From the NCBI GenBank assembly GCA_977018835.1, contig OZ361258.1, positions 1,736,001 through 1,800,000 of the forward strand: a stretch of 64,000 nucleotides of DNA, given 5' to 3'. The notes beneath the pieces were generated by a model. It did no database searches, was not told the DNA's origin, and saw only the letters and a program-made list of their open reading frames with translations. Positions 3,271 through 64,000 of the stretch are shown one piece after another. Every line of letters begins with the position of its first letter. Positions within the stretch are counted from its first letter, which is position 1. Source of the stretch: Minutocellus sp. GHC0000111 (taxonomy: Eukaryota). Made by a program: the position numbers and the translations under genes.

Positions 3271-4059
3271 ATGACTGCCCTCACCTGCATCGACCAACAG
3301 CACCAGCCCCAGCATCAGCGAAGGCGGAGCAGCCACGAGAGCATCCTCAGCGGCCTGTTCTCCGAGGCCGCCTCCGTCGCGTCCGGGCGCTTCCTCGTCG
3401 GCACCGCCGCCGGAGAAAGCAGTCTCAGCAACCTCCTCGATTTGTGTGCACGACAGGAAGACGAGCAGGCCGAGGAACACTTTGTCGTCAACACCGTCAA
3501 GAACAAGAACAATAACAGCTCCACGTCCGTCAAGGATGACGAGGACGACGAATTGAGCCTCGACCTCGGCACCGACGAGGGTACGAGCGACACAGGCGTC
3601 GACGTCAGTTGCAGCAAGGAACGTCTCGGCCTAAATCTCCCGGTAGCAGAAGTAGGAGAGAATGGACCTTCTGCTCCCCCCAGCTCCTCTTCTATCGAGA
3701 AGGACAACACAATCAACGCAGACGACAGCAGCAGCAGCAGCAGCAACAATACCGAACAGTCTCCCATCGCCGACGCAGTAGTAGGCGCCACTTCATCGCC
3801 AATGTCGTCCGATTCCAACTTCGCCGACGACGACAACAGTGAAGAATTCATGTCCATCGACCACGAGGGCACGGCACCTCTCAGCCGCCCACCTTCTTCC
3901 GCCGATGCAAAGTCCGACGAACAGCAAGCCTTTGATCAGCATCGTCGAAGAAATCAACGGAACGAGCACTACGTTGCCTGCGCCGATGACTTCCTCTTTG
4001 ATGATGACGACGACGATTCACTCAGCGACATCGACAGCGACGACGACGAGGAAATATGA
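3271..4059 (+). CDS. Hypothetical acidic low-complexity protein with an N-terminal RRRSSHESILSxLFSEAAS motif
   Basis: Open ORF from the ATG at 3271 with gene-like codon usage. The N-terminal motif is shared with the locus at 56737. Confidence 0.65.
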   Translation: MTALTCIDQQHQPQHQRRRSSHESILSGLFSEAASVASGRFLVGTAAGESSLSNLLDLCARQEDEQAEEHFVVNTVKNKNNNSSTSVKDDEDDELSLDLGTDEGTSDTGVDVSCSKERLGLNLPVAEVGENGPSAPPSSSSIEKDNTINADDSSSSSSNNTEQSPIADAVVGATSSPMSSDSNFADDDNSEEFMSIDHEGTAPLSRPPSSADAKSDEQQAFDQHRRRNQRNEHYVACADDFLFDDDDDDSLSDIDSDDDEEI

Positions 4060-10703: not shown

Positions 10704-10831
10704 GTTGTTGCTGCTTGAGTATCTCGGGTGTGTGAGTTACTGGGTGCGGTACCGGCACTTGACCTTGAAGACCGTACGATTGTTGTTGGGTGGCCAATGC
10801 ACGTGCTGGAAAATGGCGGCGCGCGGGAGAA

Positions 10832-10994
10832 CGTTGTGGGTACCGCACGGTGGGGATGAGCTGGCGACGGTGGTTAGCAGCAGGCACTAAAACTGCATTC
10901 CTGTAGTGCCCAGTTTTTCTGCTGACCACCACCTTCGCCTCCTCTCGTCTCAACTGACCAAGCCACAACCATCTGCGATTGCTGCCGTTGCAAT
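10832..10994 (+). repeat. Repeat A copy 1 (163 bp); further copies at 11390-11552 and 19303-19467
   Basis: Near-identical CGTTGTGGGTACCGCACGGTGGGGATGAGC...GCTGCCGTTGCAAT occurs three times. Confidence 0.95.
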
Positions 10995-11615
10995 CCAGGT
11001 CCAAGAATTTACATCCGGAGTCTCCACACGCATGATCCAACGAGGTTCCTTCTTCAACGTGCCCCACGCACACTCGACGAGCCATCGCGAAGACCCAAGG
11101 ACCCCAAATTGCCGCCAATCCTTCGCCGGCATCAACAGCATTGGCCGAAATGCCGGCTTCGGGACTCCAATGCCCCCCTTCGCCCTGTTCACCTAAGCAC
11201 GACACACATTATTGGCCGATCTGTGCTACGGAAAGGAGGAGGGGGAGAGGGACCTCACCCTCTAAGAAGTTTCATTTACCGCCAATGCCAGCTCCAGTTC
11301 ACGTAGTTAAACTGCATTTCATGTTCTACTAAGTTGTTGCATAGAGTTGGGAGAATCAGCGGAGGGAGGTGCTGTGTTCGATGTATCATCGTTGTGGGTA
11401 CCGCACGGTGGGGATGAGCTGGCGACGGTGGTTAGCAGCAGGCACTAAAACTGCATTCCTGTAGTGCCCAGTTTTTCTGCTGACCACCACCTTCGCCTCC
11501 TCTCGTCTCAACTGACCAAGCCACAACCATCTGCGATTGCTGCCGTTGCAATTGCTAAGTCAGCTTACAGCACCGGCTCCCAGAGCCTGTCTCTCTCTCT
11601 CTCAGTAGTTAGTTA
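10995..11615 (+). repeat. Left long direct repeat C-A-D (about 620 bp)
   Basis: Matches 18906-19532 from CCAGGTCCAAGAATTTAC to (CT)n CAGTAGTTAGTTA. Confidence 0.95.
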
Positions 11616-11659
11616 GTTTTAGCATATTAGGTTGGTGCTGCTCTACGAGTTCGTAATTA

Positions 11660-13219
11660 TTGGCCGACACACCACCACTGCTGTTAGTCCAGAGACCGCA
11701 GTCGACTCCGGAGTCAAACGGCCACGGCTCAGCTCCGTTGATAGTGCACGTAGATCCGATACCAGTCTCTACGACGGCAGAACAGTGCATGGCCGAACCA
11801 GATCGACCGGAACTGGATCACGTGTTGTTCGGAGTGGCAAGAGACCTCATCGTCCGAGGAGACTCTCCTGACCTTCCACGAGGCTGGGACAGACTCAGAC
11901 GTCAGATTCGGCCCGGGCGCAGAAGTTTCTTCACAGCCAGGGCGTCGTCCGAGAGACTGACCACAGACGCACTGGATTGGTGGAAAAGTTTTGCCGAGGG
12001 CCGAATCGACGTTACCGAGTGCCTCACCGATCTCGTCGAGCGCGCCACAGGCTACCTCCCATCGAGAGCCACGGGGTACCAGCCATCCCCAGCAGCAGCC
12101 GTTTCACACCTTACTCCAGTAGCGCACGGTCTGGTCGCCGAGTGCCTCGAGCAACAAGCCTTCTTGGTGTCACCGGACTGGCCCACGTACCTCGTCAACA
12201 TCTGGCTGATAGCCACGCGCCTTACCGAGCCTGAGATCCGCCGGGCACACGAGACGGCAACTGAGTTGGACCTGAGCAGTGCACTGTACCGACTACCACG
12301 GGCAGACGGAGGCGTCGTGGTTCAACAGTGTCGGGGGCGAAGGTGTCCGGAGGCATCGGTAGCAGCAGCGCGGCAACACCATTGCATCTGGCCCCAGCTC
12401 TGCCGGCTCACGCAGTGCATCCTCCACTACCAGGCCGACCGAAAAGAAAGACGGCGCATCGCGGCCAGAGAGGGCAGACCTCTAGAGCCGACACCGTACG
12501 CTTGCATAGGTTCACGGGGGAGCGAGCTTCCACCAACGCTGCCGCTCACTTATTTCGAGAGGGAGGTAAGGCCACTCTTCTACCCACGTGACGCACACGA
12601 CCGAACCGAGCGGGCTGGCGTCAGTGTGGCATTGGAGCGCGAGGAGATCTCATCGGCCCTTTCGCCCTGCCTGATCACCCAGTTCCCGCTGGATTCGCCG
12701 CACCCGTTCCAGAGACGGCAGTACCTACGACCGGACCAACTCACTGAAGCTATTATCAACTGGGACAGTGGATTCGAGAGCCTCACCAGCGCTCGACTCC
12801 GACACACTCGGCCTGACAGCAATCCTCTTGGACACCGAGTGGAGGTCAACCCGTACGAATGCTGGGGAAGGCTGGCAGACCTAACGGCGTCCCCCTCACA
12901 CCGCTGGGTAGGCACCTACCATCGAGTCTATCCGAGGTGGCTAGACGACACGGCCGATCCAAATCGCTGGGAGGGCACCGACTACCGCGTCTGGCCAAGA
13001 GCATCAATTCACCGGCGCCCCGACGATTTCGAGGCACCTATCCGCCTGCGAGATATCACCGCCGATATTTTGGTATCAGAGCCACCGCGTCAGGCATTCA
13101 ACATCCTTCTATCCACCTTTGGAGAGCCCGACATCGCCGACCGCATCCTCACCCTCACGGCCGATCTGAACCACATCCAGCGCCGAGAGGACCGACGCCG
13201 AAGGCGACAGGCAAGGTGA
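11660..13219 (+). CDS. Retrotransposon ORF1, unknown function
   Basis: 519-codon open frame (first ATG 11789) inside the element, directly upstream of the gag-like ORF. No recognised domain. Confidence 0.65.
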   Translation: MADTPPLLLVQRPQSTPESNGHGSAPLIVHVDPIPVSTTAEQCMAEPDRPELDHVLFGVARDLIVRGDSPDLPRGWDRLRRQIRPGRRSFFTARASSERLTTDALDWWKSFAEGRIDVTECLTDLVERATGYLPSRATGYQPSPAAAVSHLTPVAHGLVAECLEQQAFLVSPDWPTYLVNIWLIATRLTEPEIRRAHETATELDLSSALYRLPRADGGVVVQQCRGRRCPEASVAAARQHHCIWPQLCRLTQCILHYQADRKERRRIAAREGRPLEPTPYACIGSRGSELPPTLPLTYFEREVRPLFYPRDAHDRTERAGVSVALEREEISSALSPCLITQFPLDSPHPFQRRQYLRPDQLTEAIINWDSGFESLTSARLRHTRPDSNPLGHRVEVNPYECWGRLADLTASPSHRWVGTYHRVYPRWLDDTADPNRWEGTDYRVWPRASIHRRPDDFEAPIRLRDITADILVSEPPRQAFNILLSTFGEPDIADRILTLTADLNHIQRREDRRRRRQAR

Positions 13220-13235
13220 TCGAGCATTGATCACA

Positions 13236-15543
13236 ATGGCTTCATCTTTCAACACCTGGAAGTCAGTCCTGCTGGCACAAGAGATGCCGGCCGGGGCCGA
13301 CGCCGCCGTAGCTCGAGATTTCCAGAGATTCCTCGCCGACAACGTCTGTGAAACCGACCCCACGGCCGCTGTGGTCCAGAGCCATGCCCGAGCGATCCAG
13401 CAGCAAATCCGCGACGCCGAGGGTTTGTCCATGCTGGCCCACCATCCAGAAGGGAAAGTCGTGGTGATTCACCATGCCGTGGCTCAGGGAGGCACCACCA
13501 TGCAGCCCGACCTCAGGTTGGGTGGGCTCCTCGGGATCGACGATGTAGCCCCGGCAATGTCGTTGGCCCAACCTAGCCTCTTGCGGCACAAGGAGGTCCT
13601 AGCCCCATCGGTGGAAGCCATGCTGGGGGCACCGTCAGAAGCCGCCCTAACCGGTCTCACCCAGGAAGGCTCCAACACCCGCCACCGGAGTGCCTCCACG
13701 AAGTTTAAGTCCCTTGTGCCACTGCCACCTTCGATTCTGCAGAATGTTCTGGAAGAGCACGAGGCATCGCCTTGGGCCATCCTGTCCGCCATCAAACGTC
13801 GGCTGGATGAGGACGCCGGCAGCGACGACGCATCAGACAGCGGTGACGACGAGGGTCATGGCGCAGCAGGTCTTCGCTCCAATGAGGCTGTTCAACACGT
13901 CGTCAAGTGGCTGTGGTTCGTCGCCACGTCCGAGCAAGGTGACATCCCGGCCGTCAGCTTGTGCCCAACGACGGACCCGGCTCTCAAGACACACGCCCGT
14001 GAGATGCACGCTCGGCACATCACTGGCGCCAGTGGCGACGGACCACCAGCCGGTGGCGCCCCGACCGACTCTGCAGTTGCTGCCGCGGCCAACGCCATGA
14101 CTAGGGCCGCGTCCGAAGCATCCTCCCTCACCGGCGCAGTCATGGCCTACACTGACAAGGTCGACAAGAAGCACTCGATGAATGGCGCCATCCTCAAGGC
14201 CTGTGCCGCTTTCTGCCGGGTCTCGACCGAGCATGACGATGATGTAGCAGCGATCGACTCGAATCTTCCCGAAGGATTGAAAGCACTGCTGGAAGAGTCA
14301 AACCTCACGCAAGCAGCCGTCGGCCTCGAGCTGCATGTAAAGGGCAAGACCGGAGTCAGGACATCTCTCCAGGGCCTCACCACTTACGTCCGCCTCTTTG
14401 GCTTCGGGAAGAGCGACAAGAAAATCTACGATGGCTTCTCTGTCTTCGCCTTTAGCCCGGTAAACTCCAGCAGCAGCAATGCGCCCCTGTGCCTCTCCGC
14501 CTCTCAAAAGAAAGGACACACCTCGACTCAGGTGAAGGCTCTTCTGAAGCAGAACTACCGGTCCCCAACCGAGTGCGACGGTGCCAAACGTCACATCTCG
14601 GCCTTCGGCGCTGGCATTTCCTTCCTTGCCGGAGAGGATTCCGAGCCCGCTCGCTACGTCGCCAGGGTCCTCAGTCACATGAAGACACACGAGGACCAGT
14701 GCCGCGACATCGCCGAGAGCCATGGCGAGAAGTTCTGGCTGGCGATGTTCCACAACATCGACGCCTCCATCCATGCATTCTGGAAAGCTTGTCTCCGTTC
14801 CCCCCGACGACGCCGGCAACGACCTCTCTTGCTTCTCAATGGCCGACGAGTCCAAAAAGACAACGAAGACTCAGAATCCTTTCGTCTACCCCAGCCACAT
14901 CAAGCTCGTCCAATCGGCCGACGCTCCCACCCCTTCCTCGGATTCCGACTCCGACAAATCAGAGCCAAGAACCAGTCCGAAAAAGAAGCAAAAGACGGGC
15001 GGCGCCAGCGGCAGAGCCCACCAGTGCGAACACTTCGTCACGTTCAACATCAACCCCGGCAACTTTGCAAAACGGCATGGCAAGAAATCCGAGCCCTATG
15101 AGGACAGACCTGAAATTAATGGCTGTAAATTCTGCCCTCCATTCATCCTGATAGGTGTCTGCGGCGCCGGATCCTCGTGTAAGCTCAAGAAGTCGCATGT
15201 CAAGTTTCTCGGCCAGCCGGCCGAGCTCGTCCCTCCAAGCGCCGTCGAGTGCAGCCAGATGCGTCGGCGTCGATCCGCCCCGGTGGCTCCAGCCGCCCAA
15301 GGTTGTCCGGCACCCCAAAATCCGGCGTGTGCGGTCGCAACGACATCAGCAACCAATCCAGGCTCTCCGGTGCCCCTAACACCGGAGCAGAAGGCCGAGG
15401 CGTTAGCAGTGACCTTCGGTCGGGTCCTGGTCCCCCTAACACCAGCGGTGATGCCTGCGCCGACAACAGCATCTCAGGCTCTGGCTCCAGCACCACTAAC
15501 GCTGGCGGTGCGGAAGCCACCGACAACCTCTTCGACCGGCTAG
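13236..15543 (+). pseudogene. gag-like ORF with C-terminal CCCH-type zinc finger; frameshifted at about 14800
   Basis: Lies before RT. FCPPFILIGVCGAGSSCKLKKSH (C-x8-C-x5-C-x5-H) is in the shifted frame. The 3' end is approximate. Confidence 0.6.
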
Positions 15544-15756
15544 GCCAGCGAGAGAAGGATCTCCTAGGCAAGCAGCCCCAACCCGAAGCACAGTCTCCCC
15601 CTGGTTCCCCTACGCACAGCAAGGAAGCAGAACCGACACGCCAAAATGGTAAGTGAGACCAACAGGTGAAGAAACACCTACAACAAACGGGGCAGCCCAG
15701 CGCCCACAATGGGCCCACCACGGTCGGACAGACCCGCATGCTCGTGAACGTGCAGC

Positions 15757-18347
15757 ATGTGCATGTCTCACCTTTTTCTCGCCTCATGCAATTCCACGTG
15801 GGAACTAGAGCCCATCTTCGATGTTTCCACCTTGGTGCAGTGCGTCCGACGAGCAGTCGAGTCCCCGTCGGCCACACCGAAGCCCACGGAGTTCAGATTT
15901 GAGCTCTTGACGGAGGCCGCCGCTCACAATTGGTCGGTCCTCAAGAAACACGATCGTTCTCTGAGCAGGGCACTCGAGGCGCAGGGCGGGTCGCCACTCC
16001 AACCGGGATCGGAGTTCAGAGACCTGAGTCTTCTGGAGAGCCGATTCTTGGCCGGCACCCGCTGTGGCCCCGCTTCCGCTCCATTCTCGACAGTGGATCC
16101 GACTGGGCCCTCGATCCGGTGAGCGACGAAAGCAGACTGGACAGCGTGACAAAGAACATCGGCCGAGGCAACCACAAATCGGCCAGGGATAGGCCGGAGG
16201 TGCTCAAGGACCAAGTTCTCGACGACGTGACCCGCGGTTTCGCCCTCCCTCTGCCAGCAAAGGTCGCGCCCCTCATTCCTGGAGCGGAGGTGGCTCCGAT
16301 GGGTTTGGTAGCACAGAACACGATCAGCGAGGCTGGCGAGATCATGCCCAAGGACCGCCTGACTCACGACCAATCCTTCGAGATCGGTGCCGCACGGTCC
16401 GTCAACAACAGAGCACGCATGGAGGACCACCAGCCAGTGGTGTTCGGCCATGCCCTCCGGCGAGTGATCCACCACATCGTAGACGCCCGTCACAAGCATC
16501 CCCGCACTCCCATCCTCCTGCAGAAGGTCGATTTCAAGGCTGCGTGTCGCCGGGCCCACTTGGCTCCCAGCACGGCCGTCAAAACGATCACCACCCTGGA
16601 TGGCATTGCCCTCATGTCCCTCCGGCTGACTTTCGGCGGCCGCCCTTGCCCGAGCGAATGGTGCAATGTGTCCGAATCGGCGGCCGACCTGGCCAGGGCC
16701 CTCCTGCAATGCTCGGACTGGGACCCGTCAGAGCTCCACAGCCCCCAGCAGAAGCACTTGGGTCGCCCCAAGGTGGAGGGCGACTATGTGCCGTTCGCGC
16801 CGGCCCTGGACATGATCGCAACCCTTCCCGACAACAAGGATGGCATCGTCGAGCCGCACATCGATGACCTCATCGCCGCAGCCCCTGACCTGGGCGACAA
16901 CAAGGATCGGACATCCGCTGCCACCCTCCTCGCCATCCACGCGCTTGGCCGACCGGTGTCCGACAGCGAGCCACTGCCCAGAGATGACCTTGCCTCCATC
17001 AAGAAGCTGCTCGCCGACGGGACGCCTTCCGAAGCACTGTGTCTCTTGGGGTGGGATGCTGACACCCGGCGGCTCCTACTGAGGCTCCCTTGGAGCAAGC
17101 ACCTGGCCTGGCGCGATGACATGCTTCGGCTCCTCAGAGCCCGCGGCGCCACCAGATCAGAGCTGGACACCTTGGTCGGAAGGCTAAACCACGTCGGATG
17201 CATCATTCCAGCCGCACGACACTTCCTCAGCCGCCTTCGGGATCGGCTCTGGAAGGCCCGCCGCCACGGCCGCCAACGGTTCGACTCTGAGGATGCAGAA
17301 GACCTCAACCTATGGCTCCGCTTCCTCCGAAGGGCCGCCGATGGCATGAGCATGAACCTCCTCACGTGCCGTTGCCCCACCCACGAGCACACAAGTGACG
17401 CCTGCGAGCACGGCATCGGCGGATGGTCCTCATCCGGCAGAGCGTGGAGATTTGCCCTCCCCGAGGAGCTGTGGGGCCGGTTCACCCTCAATTACCTGGA
17501 ATTCCTCGCCGCCGTCATCGGCCCATGGATCGACCACATCGAGGGCAACCTGCCAACCCTCTCCTGCGTGCTGTCGGGGACCGACAGCACCACGGCCGAG
17601 GGATGGCTCAGGAAGTCGAACTTCGTGTCTCACGGCGAGAAGGATGCCGACGTAGCGGTCAAGCTGGCCACGGCGCGGAAACTAGCCGACACACTCATCG
17701 AGACCAACACCATGCTGCACTCACAGTGGTTCCAGGGGAAGCGCAATCCGGAGGCCGATTCTCTTTCTCGTGACACCGATCTCTCTGATGCTGACCTCAC
17801 GAAATTGCTTCTGTCATCTCCCGAATGTCAGCTTCCCTCAAATTTCAGGATTGCACCACTACCCAACGAGATTGCTTCCTGGATTGTCTCGCAGGCGCGG
17901 ACGCTGCCCGTCAGGAAGCAGTCACAACGGCCACTGCCGAGAAGCACGCTCTCGCGTGGAGCCGCTGGACTGAGTTCCTGCAGCTCATCGGGACCGGGGA
18001 CGACGTCTTCCTCGACAAGGTGTCACCCCGAGACCGAACAGTCATTCTCGGCGCCTTTGCCCACGCCGTCCGACAGGCCAGCTTTTCGGGGCCAAAGTTT
18101 TCGCGACTGGCTGCGTCGACAGTCCGAGATGCCGTCTCACATGCATGCTCGTCCTTCCGGCACAACCAGCGCAGGGACCCAGGGAAAGACGACATCGGCC
18201 AGCCTTCATTCCTTCTGCAGCGGCAGTTCCGAGGATGCAGCCAGTCCGACCCGGCCGAGCGGCCGGAGAAGGCGATCACCTGCCGGCTCCTCCGAGAGAT
18301 CGCCTCCGTCAGGGAAACGGAAGAGGACCGTGCAGTCGGGCAACTAG
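15757..18347 (+). pseudogene. Reverse transcriptase / RNase H of YR retrotransposon
   Basis: KDRLTHDQSF, KVDFKAACRR, LRLTFGGRPCPSEW, HIDD (for YIDD), LGW, and RNase H TSDAC..GIGG, NYLEF, TDSTTA, NPEADSLSR. Frameshift near 16040. Confidence 0.92.
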
Positions 18348-19109
18348 CCGTCGGCGCCTTCTTCTTCGCGATGAGGTCTTGCGAACACTCCAGAGTCAGC
18401 GGTGAGCGCAGGACCAAGCTGCTCCGCCTCCGCAACATCCAGTTCTACCGCGGCCGACGGCGCATGTGTCACAACGACCGGTCCCTCCTCTCAGCAGACT
18501 CTGTCTCCGTCGCCTTTGAGTTCCAGAAGAACGACGAGCGTGACGTCACGATTGCGCAACACTGCACCCACGACGCCACCCTCTGCCCAGTTCGAGCTTG
18601 GGCTGCCCTGGTGAAACGAGTCCTAGGGCACCCTAGCACCAACAGCGATACGCCGGTAAATGCCTTCGTGGTCAACGGCGCATTAAAATACATTCCTGCC
18701 ACCCGAATAGTTGACAAGATCCGAGCGTCGGCCACAGTGATTGGAGAGAGGACGTCCTGGGCTGCCATCCCTCTGAATTCGGATCACACTCCATTCATTC
18801 GCAGCGGGGAGCAGCAATGGCAATGTATCTAAATGATGTTCCCACGTACACAATCATGCTGGTAGGGCGGTGGTCCAGTGACGCCTTCCTCAAGCACATC
18901 CGTCGCCAGGTCCAAGAATTTACATCCGGAGTCTCCACACGCATGATCCAACGAGGTTCCTTCTTCAACGTGCCCCACGCACACTCGACGAGCCATCGCG
19001 AAGACCCAAGGACCCCAAATTGCCGCCAATCCTTCGCCGGCATCAACAGTGTTGGCCGAAATGCCGGCTTCGGGACTCCAATGCGCCCCCCTTCGCCCTG
19101 TTCACCTAA
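17825..19109 (+). pseudogene. Tyrosine recombinase, overlapping the RT/RH ORF; frameshifted, catalytic Tyr replaced by His
   Basis: FFFAMRSCE, FEFQKND, LCPVRAW, disrupted HSIRSG (about 18790-18810), IMLVGRWSSDAFLKHIR. Confidence 0.9.
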
Positions 19110-19532
19110 GCACGACACACATTATTGGCCGATCTGTGCTACGGAAAGGAGGAGGGGGAGAGGGACCTCACCCTCTAAGAAGTTTCATTTACCGCCAATG
19201 CCAGCTCCAGTTCACGTAGTTAAACTGCATTTCATGTTCTACTAAGTTGCATAGAGTTGGGAGAATCAGCGGAGGGAGGTGCTGTGTTCGATGCATCATC
19301 ATCGTTGTGGGGGCACCGCACGGTGGGGATGAGCTGGCGACGGTGGTTAGCAGCAGGCACTAAAACTGCATTCCTGTAGTGCCCAGTTTTTCTGCTGACC
19401 ACCACCTTCGCCTCCTCTCGTCTCAACTGACCAAGCCACAACCATCTGCGATTGCTGCCGTTGCAATTGCTAAAAGTCAGCTCACAGCACCGGCTCCCAG
19501 AGCCTGTCTCTCTCTCTCTCAGTAGTTAGTTA
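18906..19532 (+). repeat. Right long direct repeat C-A-D
   Basis: Copy of 10995-11615 with a few substitutions and slippage indels. Confidence 0.95.
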
Positions 19533-20053
19533 ATTTAAGGCGGTAAATGAAACTTCTTAGACGGGTTTGAGGGAATTTCTGCCGCCGCTGGCCCGACATG
19601 TCCGATAGGGTGGGTTGTTTGAGCACCGTGAAACAAAAGAATTCAGTGTGACTAGCTAGGAATTCCTACATGTAGGAGTGCCTCCTACTTGAGTTATAAT
19701 ACTGTAAGAAATTTATATAAGATTCTACCGGTATCACCGCCAGAGAGGGTGTATGCAGCAAACCGGAAAAAATGCAACTCATATGTATTGAAGATCTGAA
19801 TTCATCCTCCTTCCTTCTTCGTTCGATGTGCCAATGATCAGAATATACGAGTGTCTTGGTCCCACTCTAGTTATCTAAGGTGGCTCATGTTCGACACACC
19901 CGTGCTCTCATCGCCACGCGCATAAAGTAAATCAGTTCACATACATAAATCCAATGCAACAAGTTGCGTGCCCGGATCAGCTTGCATCTAAATCATCAAG
20001 ATCTGTCGATACTCCTCTATAGTGACTTCTACTCCACTTCTTCCGCTTTCAAA

Positions 20054-37303: not shown

Positions 37304-39289
37304 ATGAAGCGCGGTATCTTGCCAACCGCTGCTGCTTTGGCCCTCGTCAGCACTTTCGTGGGATCGGCCAATGCAGCCTGGGAGGATCACGACAGTTCCG
37401 TCCGGCAGTACGACCTTGGCCCGCCGATGCTAAGCAATGCACTGCAATGGGTCTCCACCGGATGTCCCGACGGCATTGATTACTGCGGCATGTTGGAGTT
37501 CTGCGAAGATACCAGCGATTTTCCCAACGTTGTCTTTGGCTACAGGCATCCCTGCCTTGGCGACGAAGAGGAGTGCGAATGCAAGGCCGGACCTGGTCCG
37601 ACCATTCGGCTGGAGCCGGGGAACAAGTACCTGCTGACGCTGCGCAATGCCGCCGAGAACGTGGCCAGTGTCACCAACCTGCACACTCAGTGAGTTCTCG
37701 TTGAGCATTGTTTGTGGCACGAAATGAACCTGTTTTTGTCCACATGCATGTTTGTACTTTATGCAAGTCTACCCGTCGCCTTCTTTGTTTGTGCATTTTC
37801 CGCCACTCATTACTTACACACGCATATTTTTATGTGATGCGTATCTTCTCGTCGCCTTCCCTGTAGTGGCCTCCACATTGTTGGCGCTGGAAATGGAGAC
37901 GACGTGACCCGTTACGTAAACGGCGGTGGAAACTGCCTCGACTATGTGTGGGATATCACTGACGACCATCCCGGCGGAACGTACTGGTATCACGCTCACA
38001 AGCACGGATTCACGGAACCACAGGTCAATGGCGGCGCTTACGGCATGCTCATCGTCGAGGATAACAAGATTATCAACCCCGATACGCCGGAGTGGGCAAC
38101 CAACGAAATTCTGCTCATGGTGGCCCGTATCAACGGAGAGATCTATGGCAATGGCAACCAGAACGAAATCATTCGCATGGATGCCAACCAGTGGTATCGG
38201 TTGCGAGTCGGCATCGTGGATGTGCTGGCCGAACCGGACTGGCTGACCTTTGGCAGCGGCTGTGAGATCCATCAGGTGGCTGCCGATGGCATCTGGCGGT
38301 CCAAGGTACCCGGCCCGGCCAAGTCCAAGTTCTACCTGACGGGTTCGTCCCGTGCCGACTTTGCCATCCGGTGTGCCTCTTCGTTCCATGTGCTGTTCGG
38401 CGGTGCCAAGGCCGCGACTGTATACGTCGGTGCCGTCCACCCCGATCCGTTTGAGATGGAGGACTGGGTTCCCAAGCGCCCTCGGTCTCTGCAGGGCATT
38501 TCCGAAGCCGTGGTACCTCCCGAGAATACATTCGATGTGGAATTGACCAGAGAGGGAATTAATAATATTCTGTGGGACCCGACCACTCCCCTCACCACCG
38601 TTGCATACAACGAAGTCCATGAGTGGACACTGACCAGATCCAAAACTCATCCATTCCACCTGCATTTGTATCACGTCCTCGTCGTCCAGCCCGGGGGCTG
38701 CGGTGAACAGCATGAGGAGGGAGAGTTCTACGACTCCATCTCGGGTAACGAGTACGAGGAGTGCAAGGTGCGATTCAAGGCCAGCGACGTTGGCCAACGA
38801 TGCGTCTTGCATTGTCACGTATTTAACCACGAAGACAATGGCGCCATGGGCTGGGTGGACGTCGTTGGTCCAAACATGCCTCGCAACGATGAAGTCAGTC
38901 CTCAGTATTCGTGCCCAGCCATCCCGAGGTGGACATCTGCGCCAACCACCCTGGCTCCTCCTCCGACAAGACGGCCGGCGACGAGTCCTGGAGATGCATC
39001 TGTCTCTTCGACTGAAGCTACTCCAAGCGATGGCAAATTGGTCCAAGAGGATGAAAATTGCAGTCCCTTGGGAGAGAAGGCTGTAGAGTGCGGCGCCAGA
39101 CCGCAAGATGGTCGGGGAGAGACCTGCTGTGGAGGTCTGACATGTGGTGGCGACCGGGGCAAGGTATGCGTTGAGAACATGGAAGATGCGTTCTCCACTG
39201 CATCAAGCACCACCAGCAGTGCTTCTGTAGTATCAGCCGGATTTATATTTTCACTCGGCTTCGGAGTTGTCGTATGTCTCTTTGTCTAA
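37304..39289 (+). CDS. Multicopper oxidase, secreted with C-terminal membrane anchor, 2 exons
   Basis: Signal peptide; TNLHTHGLH spans intron 37690-37866; GTYWYHAHKHG; HPFHLH; HCHVFNHEDNGAM; hydrophobic C-terminus. Confidence 0.92.
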
Positions 39290-55942: not shown

Positions 55943-56737
55943 CGTCGCTGTCGTTGTTGTTGTCCAAGGAGTGGATGAATCCCCTAGCGATGGCAAGGTG
56001 ACTCTCGTTCTGCTCGCTTCTTCTACGGCGTTCCTTGAAGGTAGATCTAGTGTGCAAAATGATGACTTGTGGCAGGCTTGGATAGGTAAAATATGCGCTA
56101 GTGTCGGAAGGTGGGCGGTCAAGAGGGACTACAATCTCTTGGTCGGCGAAGTTTTGTTCTGGGAACGGTGGCAGAGGTGAGAGTGAAGTGCTAGTAGATG
56201 GTGCGAAAGCATTTGCAGTAGCAGCATCTGGAGCTGTAGCACTTGGTGTGTCGTCAAGAGGATTCACATTTGCGTCGGTGTCAGCAAGTAGACTGTCATT
56301 TTGATCCATGGTGGTGTCGAGGCCAAAAGTAGACGAGCCCTGAGAAGATGGTTGTGACGATGTTGGCCTGTCGGTGCGATTCGTGGTAGCTGACTGTGTG
56401 ATTGCTGGCTCTCAGAAGGCTCGTTCACAGAATGGACGTCGAACATTCCGTGATGATCACTCTTGCTGGAAGCTACTTCGATGATGACGTCTTGCTGGCC
56501 GTGTGCCACCTCCTCGTCGAATCGCTCGCCATCATCGTGAACATCGACATCGACGAGAGAGACACCACCGACGATGCTGTCGTCGGCGCAGCCAGAAGAG
56601 AGAAAGCGACCAGATGAGATGCTGGCGGCCTCGGAGAACAAATCGCTGAGGATGCTCTCATGGCTACAGCTGGAGCGCCGTCGTCGCGGCTGCTGTCGCT
56701 GCGTCGGTTGCGGTTCTTGGTCGGCAAGGGCGGTCAC
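55900..56737 (-). pseudogene. Paralog of the 3271 hypothetical protein; GTG start, frameshifted, 3' end uncertain
   Basis: xTAL...RRRRSSCSHESILSDLFSEAASISSGRFL matches the 3271 N-terminus. Confidence 0.5.
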
Positions 56738-61805: not shown

Positions 61806-64000
61806 TTAGAAAATGGTTTGATTGTAATAGCACTCGTAGCGCGTAGCGTCAATGTCGTGGCGTTTCGATAGCAACTTTTGATATTCGAAGCATTCGCTGA
61901 GATAAAAATAGCTCACGGTCGCCTTCGAACCATCGGCACCGTTGCTGATGATGTCAAGCTGTCCGTCTCCGTTGACATCGGCGAGGACAAGATCGTTCTC
62001 ATCGAACAGAACGATTCCTTCAAAGACCAAATGATTGAGGAAGTTGGCCTTACCGTCGTTCTCAAAGAGGTAGGTGAGACTCAGTTCCTCGGACGTTGCC
62101 ACTATGTCAATGTCTCCGTCGCCGTTCATGTCGGCCGTTACGGCCACCACCACCTCGGGAATGCCGTCGAAGATGACCGTCTTTTCACCAAAGGTATAAT
62201 TGCCATACGGGGACGACGAGGAGGGCAATGGTGGGGGGATCTGTCGGTACCAGCTCACCGAGGCATCGTCGGATGTGGCGGTGACTAGGTCCAGGAGGCC
62301 ATCGCCATCTAGATCCGCCACCGTCACGTACTTGGCCTCCTCTAAGCCGGTAAGAAGCACGGAGTCCTGGTAGGTACCGTCAGGCAATTGTTGAAAAAGA
62401 AAGATGGAACCATCGTCGTCGGATGCGACCAAGGTATCGAGGAGGCCATCGCCATTGAAATCAACAATGTCCAAACCTTCCGGAGTTTGCGGAAGGTCGG
62501 AGATGGTGCTGCGTATAAAGGTGGGGTTAGGGGGTTGTGGCGAAGCAACCGCCGCGGCATCATCGGCTCCATCATCTGCGTCGGCGCTTGCGGTGTCCAC
62601 GCCATTGTTCTCGAACAGCAGGACAAGTCCCATATCTTCCACGACCACCACAATGTCGACCAATCCATCGGCGTTCATGTCGGCCGCACGGATTGATTCC
62701 ATATCGGGCAGCTCCGTGGCCAGGACCTGTCCCGTAAAGGTGATAGGAGAATTGGTATTGTCTTTGTTGTCACGGGGATTCTGCAGGTACAGGTAGAGCG
62801 TCCCCATCTCCTTCTCGCTGACCACCACGTCGGGCAGACCGTCGCCGTTGAAATCGGCCACGTCGACGGACCCGATTTCCAATTCCAGCGCCTCGTCCTC
62901 GAGGGGATGGACGACGTGTCTTCGTATTTCTGTCGTTGTCGTCGTATTTGTCGTTGTTGTTTCTTGTGTGTCATTATCTGCATTTGCTTCATCTCTCGGC
63001 AGGACGATAACCTGCTCCAGATATTCGACGCTGACGTGAGGCCAGTTGAGAGCGGCGATGACGTCAACCTTGGTCGAGTCGGCACCGCCAACGCCACCAC
63101 CGCCGCCGATAACGGTGGCCAGCGCCGCACTGGACAGGTCGTCCCCGACCAGCACATTTTGTTGGACGCATCCTGGGAACAAGTCTGGCTGGGCCTGGAC
63201 TCCGCCGTTGGTACTAGTGTTGCCATTGGCATTGCCATCTGCTCCCACGGTCGCTTCACTTGCACCATTACTGCCACCGCCATCAGTGCTGCCCCTCGCC
63301 GTGACCGCGACGGCCGTGGCAATGGCCACCACGGCCACGACGAAAACGACCACCGCACCCCCCAGCACCATCCTCCGCTTGCTGGCCCGATGCCGATCGT
63401 CGAGCTCTCGCTTCGTCTCCTCCTTGGCCTGATCGACCAGCCGCTGCTCGTGCCGGGCGATGGCATCGGAGTCCATGACGACGACATCGGATGCCGTATT
63501 CGTACCGCTGGCAAGGGTCGGGGCCGTCGTGGCGTGGGCGGATTCGGACCCGACCGACGGCGGCTGCGGTCATCGTTTCGGCCTCGCCTGCGCCTGCGGC
63601 TTCTGCCTCTGCGACCATCTGATGGTCATCCATATCAAAATCAACGTCGTCGTTTACCTCGCTGGCGATCGGTACCGCCACCGCGTCGGTGATGACGGCC
63701 TCGTGCTCATGGTGCTCTACGGACGGCTGCTGGTGGCTACTCATGCTGCTGCCATGACGTTCATGCCTCGAACCTCCTCCAGCTCCTCCACCGCCAACTC
63801 CGGCCGCCTCGACGACGGCACCGGACGAGGCGGCGGACGACAGGCCGTCCAGGGGGGTGGGGAAGACGCGGAACGCGCCCGGCTGCGATTGCGATCGGGA
63901 GGATGCGGCAGACGCGGACGCGGACGCGGACGCCGAAGCTGGAGGATTGGGAGTGGGAGGGATCTCCTCCGTGTCCTCCTTGCGACTGCCGCCACCAATA
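61806..64000 (-). CDS. Single-pass membrane protein with FG-GAP/VCBS repeats; 5' end beyond window; frameshift at about 63553
   Basis: Six DxNGDGxxD-type repeats after a TM helix. The upstream frame (QPGAFRV...MSSHQQ) stays open to 64000. Confidence 0.82.

Follow-up and report, generated by a model that had tools for sequence, protein, structure and literature searches.

In Neurospora and other ascomycetes, RIP converts C:G to T:A and makes TpA and stop codons; it is RID-dependent, requires a homologue of cytosine methyltransferases and is triggered when repeats pair before meiosis in the sexual cycle. In the rhizarian alga Bigelowiella natans (B. natans), a recent preprint followed two viral inserts, of which one is single-copy, through 231 new mutations and reports in its main text that 230 were A:T→G:C changes, all on TpA (10.64898/2026.01.13.699255). 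According to the same text, the mutation rate is raised about 1000-fold and the process is on in some lineages only, RT and DDE domains are over-represented among TpA-poor genes, and the authors propose an ADAT2/3-type deaminase, which is unproven (10.64898/2026.01.13.699255).

Here we analyse a 64,000-nucleotide stretch of DNA (the window) from Minutocellus sp. GHC0000111, a probable diatom, in which an earlier note had suspected TpA hypermutation of a retrotransposon. Among the matches listed for a flanking gene, the highest-placed named ones are to the diatoms Odontella, Thalassiosira and Skeletonema, at 51-55% identity. The case is real and strong, and it adds a motif, independence of hits and short duplications to the recently described process. 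The process is probably of the kind known from B. natans. Both show near-pure A:T→G:C change that hits TpA on either strand and is limited to foreign DNA, in Minutocellus within the 64-kb window and for one element. The B. natans data concern new mutations in viral inserts in which many TpA persist, whereas in Minutocellus a multi-copy retrotransposon is near saturation. Three features of the Minutocellus data, the TAY motif, weak change outside TA and an excess of short duplications, were not seen in the main text of the B. natans preprint, which reports no indel excess and leaves diatoms unmentioned (10.64898/2026.01.13.699255). The novelty claimed earlier therefore holds in part: the process had already been described outside diatoms, in B. 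natans, while a literature search with few subscription papers within reach found no report of it in diatoms. With RIP, the Minutocellus process shares dinucleotide-specific, two-strand transitions that wreck transposon copies and spare neighbouring genes. The direction is opposite to the C:G→T:A change with TpA gain by which RIP is recognized; whereas RIP gains TpA and stop codons, the Minutocellus process removes TpA and makes no stops.

The retrotransposon locus

Judged by its repeats and by the predicted folds of intact relatives, the locus at 10832-19539 (forward strand, as are all its genes and repeats) is a dead copy of an Ngaro-like tyrosine-recombinase retrotransposon. It contains a 163-nt repeat (A) three times and a block of about 630 nt twice. 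The first A copy (10832-10994) is 100% identical to 11390-11552 and 98% identical to 19303-19467, and the left block (10995-11622; B, A and a 70-nt tail) is 97% identical to the right block (18906-19539). Between the blocks lie ORF1 (11789-13219, 477 codons, no assigned family), a downstream ORF called gag-like by position only (13236-15543, frameshifted near 14800 by a 1-nt extra base), an RT/RNase H gene (15757-18347, frameshifted near 16036) and a tyrosine recombinase (YR) gene (17825-19089, frameshifted near 18744-18806), the frame of which overlaps the RT/RNase H gene. The last two were delimited by tblastn with the relatives P0005, which matched in two frames, and P0176, which is intact.

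No Pfam domain was found in the six frames of the element, ORF1 and the gag-like ORF included. On the intact relatives, Pfam gave no RT and only a sub-threshold PF00589, and searches against PDB sequences produced no match to RT and, for YR, no more than weak ones to Cre. The AlphaFold model of the intact relative P0005 resembles a retroviral-type RT (Foldseek E 5e-10) and that of P0176 resembles Cre (Foldseek E 6e-7); these fold matches settle the identity of RT and YR where sequence searches did not. The family motif HSIR..W..YIR also aligns, weakly (E 0.6), with the YIR of Cre, the Tyr of which we take to be the catalytic nucleophile.

As described for Ngaro elements (PMC8547959), these share with the Minutocellus element a gag-like ORF, an RT/RNase H overlapping a Cre-like recombinase, and split direct repeats. 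They differ in lacking an extra upstream ORF such as ORF1 and in their repeat order, A1-ORFs-B1-A2-B2 (PMC8547959), whereas the repeats at 10832-11622 and 18906-19539 read A-B, then A-ORFs-B-A plus 70 nt. The odd order may reflect a solo AB repeat beside the element or a truncated tandem. Loose short-read contig ends lie near 11385-11392, which suggests a start or end point of other copies. One contig of run X1 joins 10824 to 19578 with the element absent; it may represent an empty site, in which case the insertion may be polymorphic.

Loss of TA and tyrosine in the window copy

A recount agrees with the depletion first noticed in this copy: there are 13 TA in 16381-18640 (rho 0.17) and 29 in 12001-13000, and only two Tyr in the 814 codons of the RT/RNase H frame (15903-18347), which corresponds from residue 2 onward to the database protein P0128 (805 aa). 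One of these two Tyr, at 16785, replaces an Asp and is private to the window copy among 41 aligned rows. The substitutions at conserved positions are also present as first read, with YIDD changed to HIDD (CAC at 16857-16859), AAYRR to AACRR (TGT at 16545-16547), the recombinase SCEY to SCEH (CAC at 18386) and YIR at the recombinase nucleophile to HIR (CAC at 18895-18897). Over the RT core, Tyr accounts for 0.3% of residues in the window copy and 0-0.3% in representatives of ten close copies, as against 0.8-3.2% (median 1.8%) in 110 relatives that are not copies. Host genes do keep Tyr, at 247 of 8607 codons (2.9%) in 17 likely host frames of the 39 translated.

The idea that Tyr codons themselves are erased as a target was not borne out: Ile (ATA), Val (GTA) and Leu (CTA) codons change equally, as do Thr and Ser codons after T, and the loss of Tyr is incidental to that of TA. 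Low TA, although correctly counted, also fails as a diagnostic sign, since the host exon at 1-1000 is equally poor and keeps its Tyr. The GAF/kinase-like host exons at 1-1495 have 5-10 TA per kb (5 per kb in 1-1000) and form a 1.5-kb stretch free of RTAY with Tyr codons kept; their low TA probably follows from high GC3 and low complexity. Enrichment of TG and CA is absent from the element (rho 1.14 and 1.17, compared with 1.15 and 1.15 in the flanks), so the case rests on comparing copies rather than on composition. Nor is CG stripped from the element (rho 0.94).

Copies and ancestral state

A protein search and cluster look-up gave at least 54 RT protein rows that are 89-97% like the window RT, mostly on contigs of 0.1-5.3 Mb. 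The window's own row and four near-duplicates were dropped, and 41 rows including the window were kept, each with at least 8 informative sites. Because one row is the window copy, the remaining rows probably belong to this assembly or to a sister one. A JGI metagenome scan for the DNA of other copies gave 94 pattern matches, 0 of them confirmed. The counts across copies given below apply to one transposon family, with most nucleotide states deduced from protein, silent sites unseen and shared events counted repeatedly.

As the earlier note had predicted for aligned copies, nearly every common difference at the protein level is a TA-derived pair (His/Cys, Met/Thr, Val/Ala, Thr/Ala, Leu/Pro and Ser/Gly). 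Sites with three or four states show the expected sets, namely Tyr/Cys/His, Ile/Met/Thr and, at TATA, Ile/Met/Thr/Val/Ala. We have very little doubt about the overall pattern, in which copies differ by A:T→G:C changes concentrated at TpA on both strands.

CpG decay yields identical residue pairs, and sites were for this reason polarized with relatives. The test covered 38 RT sites with the minor residue in at least 3 copies, read against 6 near and 104 far relatives. Both sets of relatives gave ancestral TA at 27 of the 33 classifiable sites and ancestral CG at 0 of 33; the rest comprised three sites with TA by far relatives only, two with conflicting states and one with CG by far relatives only. 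The five unclassified sites were two four-state TATA sites and three non-TA transitions. This result excludes CpG decay, as had been argued, and removes the objection that the ancestor already carried His or Cys. The intact recombinase P0176, which is 92% identical, has 11 Tyr, seven of which are His or Cys in the window copy, with one uncertain; of 13 copies, 4 keep the nucleophile Tyr, 3 have Cys in its place and 6 have His.

In the sister family P0005 (9 rows on short contigs), none of 10 variable columns is Tyr/His/Cys and Tyr is kept. Three conserved Tyr columns were scored in the 110 relatives, of which only 6 have His or Cys in them (7 of 330 cells); the process is thus not evident in either set. 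The short-contig records of the P0005 family and relatives are probably collapsed consensus sequences.

Sequence context

The zone at 13074-18647 is saturated, with 0 RTAY in 5575 nt. All 45 TA left in 13250-18600 are YTAR, YTAY or RTAR, and RTAY thus makes up 0 of 45 TA in this core and 603 of 1792 (34%) in the flanks (Fisher p=1.6e-8); within the 64-kb window and for this one element, host DNA is spared. CTAG is not depleted in the core and resists mutation. Across copies, TA is kept in 3 of 311 calls for core RTAY codons compared with 66 of 148 calls for the remaining core TA codons. Towards the end of the recombinase (its last 300 nt, 18600-18900), 27 of 91 calls for RTAY codons keep TA, or about 30% of copies. 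The repeat just downstream has no RTAY. ORF1 is much less mutated than the rest of the element, with 13 Tyr and 9 RTAY remaining, and carries TG/CA doublets at 12020-12021 and 12976-12977. It is found at similar depth in other short-read runs.

A weak tier of A>G change outside TA follows the 5' base in the order A>C>G (AA 17/1814, 0.9%; CA 29/4692, 0.6%; GA 9/6111, 0.15%) and falls nearly always before a pyrimidine (3' C 29/3399, T 21/2841, G 5/4167, A 0/2210). Mild CpG decay is also present, with C>T at 27 of 5236 CG (0.5%) and 16 of 11029 elsewhere.

Strand, linkage and timing of hits

Both products were expected from the window copy alone, and both are found across copies. At 13 sites, a tally made before five redundant rows were left out gave TG 149, CA 170, TA kept 51 and other 1, which agrees with a 50:50 split (p=0.26). 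Over 41 rows and 28 sites, mean r2 was 0.064 compared with 0.057+/-0.005 in shuffled data (p=0.10), and copy-wide strand bias was below the null expectation. Covariance between neighbouring sites gave p=0.24 for scored sites that lie tens of bases apart. Such unlinked sites without strand coordination suggest that hits are likely independent and fall on resident double-stranded DNA. The comparison of copies thus bears out a DNA-level, two-strand TA→TG/CA mutator acting after insertion, and the mutations were likely laid in resident genomic DNA once the copy was in place.

At single sites, strand choice is skewed: the YIDD site, a GTAC palindrome, has CA in 31 copies and TG in 6. A simple rule by which the 3' base sets the strand hit fits several sites and was rejected, as it fails at 16857 and 17691; the ATAC at 17691 goes the opposite way to the 3'-T rule. 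An A change on one strand is a T change on the other, and sequence cannot separate the two.

Read support

The element is covered by short-read contigs from four runs, and TG and CA products are both seen in them; the changes are not an artefact. Runs X17-X22, with little or no share, did not enter this comparison. In contigs of run X1, 85 of 93 differences are transitions, and among the best 40 of 124 rows listed, 32 are TA/TG/CA swaps by by-eye classing, including eight TG/CA doublets. Position 18895 is T in the main path of one run and C in three runs. The two repeat blocks of the window copy themselves differ by one CA/TG doublet (TG at 19050-19051, CA at 11139-11140 on the left), three TA→CA changes in the right block (19294, 19314 and 19483), two end changes and five short insertions. 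The host PGM3 gene aligns in a single frame over 1.9 kb, which argues against assembly error.

Short duplications

Copies carry 37 in-frame insertions, mostly one doubled codon, some of which are perhaps shared or reference-dependent, compared with 7 deletions. In the window copy, 11 of the 12 indel rows listed have extra bases, mostly one unit doubled. These extra bases, of 1-4 nt, lie within 11333-19472 (e.g. at 11624, 12637, 12666, 16036, 18744, 18797, 18806 and 19083) and break the gag, RT and YR frames. Nearness of the duplications to TA, TG or CA is not beyond chance (12 events, p=0.09-0.46). Small tandem duplications can form at breaks with 3' overhangs (PMC8355091).

Mechanism

On balance, we lean slightly towards a host mutator, probably an adenine deaminase, that hits genomic copies one by one after insertion and likely serves defence. 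For the enzyme step itself, adenine deamination ranks first among mechanisms, with about an even chance of being correct. The candidate enzyme would convert A in 5'-TAY-3' to inosine, which would be replicated as G. A first hit on either strand would remove the TA, so that each site would end as TG or CA. The element would die through missense changes, catalytic Tyr included, and through frameshifting duplications, which are possibly repair scars at nicked lesions. Long open frames survive because TA→TG/CA makes no new stop. Targeting would probably run via silenced chromatin or small RNA and not via repeat pairing. The process is likely a host defence, or silencing may bring it about as a by-product.

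A deaminase is ranked above a sloppy polymerase because the changes are pure transitions with a strict 5' T and a 3' pyrimidine, a pattern better suited to a context-reading enzyme. A-to-I change by ADAT2/3 or TadA would give exactly A→G, and no link to transposon-wide mutation is shown in the relevant passages of PMC10354150 and PMC10661471. Natural ADAT2/3 of amphioxus deaminates A in DNA hairpin loops, and the DNA motifs given there are GAA and TCG, not TAY (PMC10354150). This counts against ADAT2/3, because GA, contained in the preferred GAA, is the coldest context here. To our knowledge, ADAT2/3 is universal, which is a further point against it as an explanation.

The alternative that fares best, although we think it unlikely, is that a polymerase of the Y or X family (Pol iota- or Pol eta-like) fills gaps in silenced chromatin with errors, placing G opposite T and slipping. 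Pol iota does insert G opposite T, and one process would account for both signatures, the transitions and the excess of extra bases in copies and window (37 insertions against 7 deletions, and 11 of 12 indel rows listed). Pol eta, named earlier as a candidate, makes A/T mutations at WA (PMC6423074), and the fit is poor: AA, the other half of WA, changed in 17 of 1814 cases as against 308 of 311 for RTAY, making it about 100-fold colder than TA (0.9% compared with up to 99%). A is rarely changed by transversion, and at scored sites tens of bases apart, neighbouring same-strand changes are unclustered, where patch synthesis would be expected to leave clusters.

The deaminase reading places the lesion on A. 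We consider it improbable that the target is instead thymine, with a TET/JBP-type oxidase marking T in RTA as hydroxymethyl- or formyl-uracil that mispairs or is excised, giving T-to-C change and nick-repair duplications. The data are strand-symmetric, and TAY is RTA on the opposite strand. However, hmU pairs well with A, and TC, which is GA on the opposite strand, is the coldest context (9/6111). In dinoflagellates, hmU marks transposons and is reported to favour TA and TC, in a source whose relevant passages mention neither diatoms nor a T-to-C outcome (PMC11572971).

Editing of element RNA or cDNA during transposition by an ADAR-like or APOBEC-like enzyme, fixed at insertion, is very unlikely. 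RNA adenosine editors have a similar 5' preference (T>A>C>G), and the element turns up in RNA runs, through transcription or otherwise. Against this stand the independent two-strand hits on resident DNA: every copy has an even TG/CA mix without copy-wide strand bias, and within a single copy the repeat blocks are not identical. ADAR also prefers a 3' G (UAG), whereas TAG resists here, and in B. natans the change arises in resident DNA, according to the main text of the preprint (10.64898/2026.01.13.699255). Ordinary CpG decay, family-specific His/Cys or assembly error can hardly explain the pattern: CG→TG/CA does leave the same doublets and mild decay is present, but at 27 of 33 sites the relatives carry the residue that TA encodes, the intact recombinase retains its 11 Tyr, and both products recur in four runs' contigs beside a single-frame PGM3.

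Significance

The known process rests on one preprint and one alga, and a second, distant lineage makes it a candidate widespread protist defence. More tentatively, it could be an ancient SAR-wide defence of diatoms and chlorarachniophytes, in which a DNA adenine deaminase would read 5'-TAY-3' in silenced foreign DNA, edit it to saturation and leave duplications when repair nicks both strands. The copy data add a sharper motif (TAY, with CTAG spared), independent hits on double-stranded DNA and a duplication scar, and any mechanism must account for the short duplications too. If true, the deaminase reading would add an A-to-G equivalent to RIP and APOBEC; such a naturally occurring adenine base editor of DNA would be relevant to base editing. 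Diatoms include transformable models for the enzyme hunt. The process also skews estimates of transposon age, consensus sequences and GC content, and the long open frames left behind get annotated as proteins by gene callers.

Elsewhere in the window, a 66-nt inverted match of 82% joins 3331-3396 and 56600-56665. By eye, a multicopper-oxidase-like frame lies at 37838-39289 and an FG-GAP-repeat-like membrane protein frame at 61806-63569.
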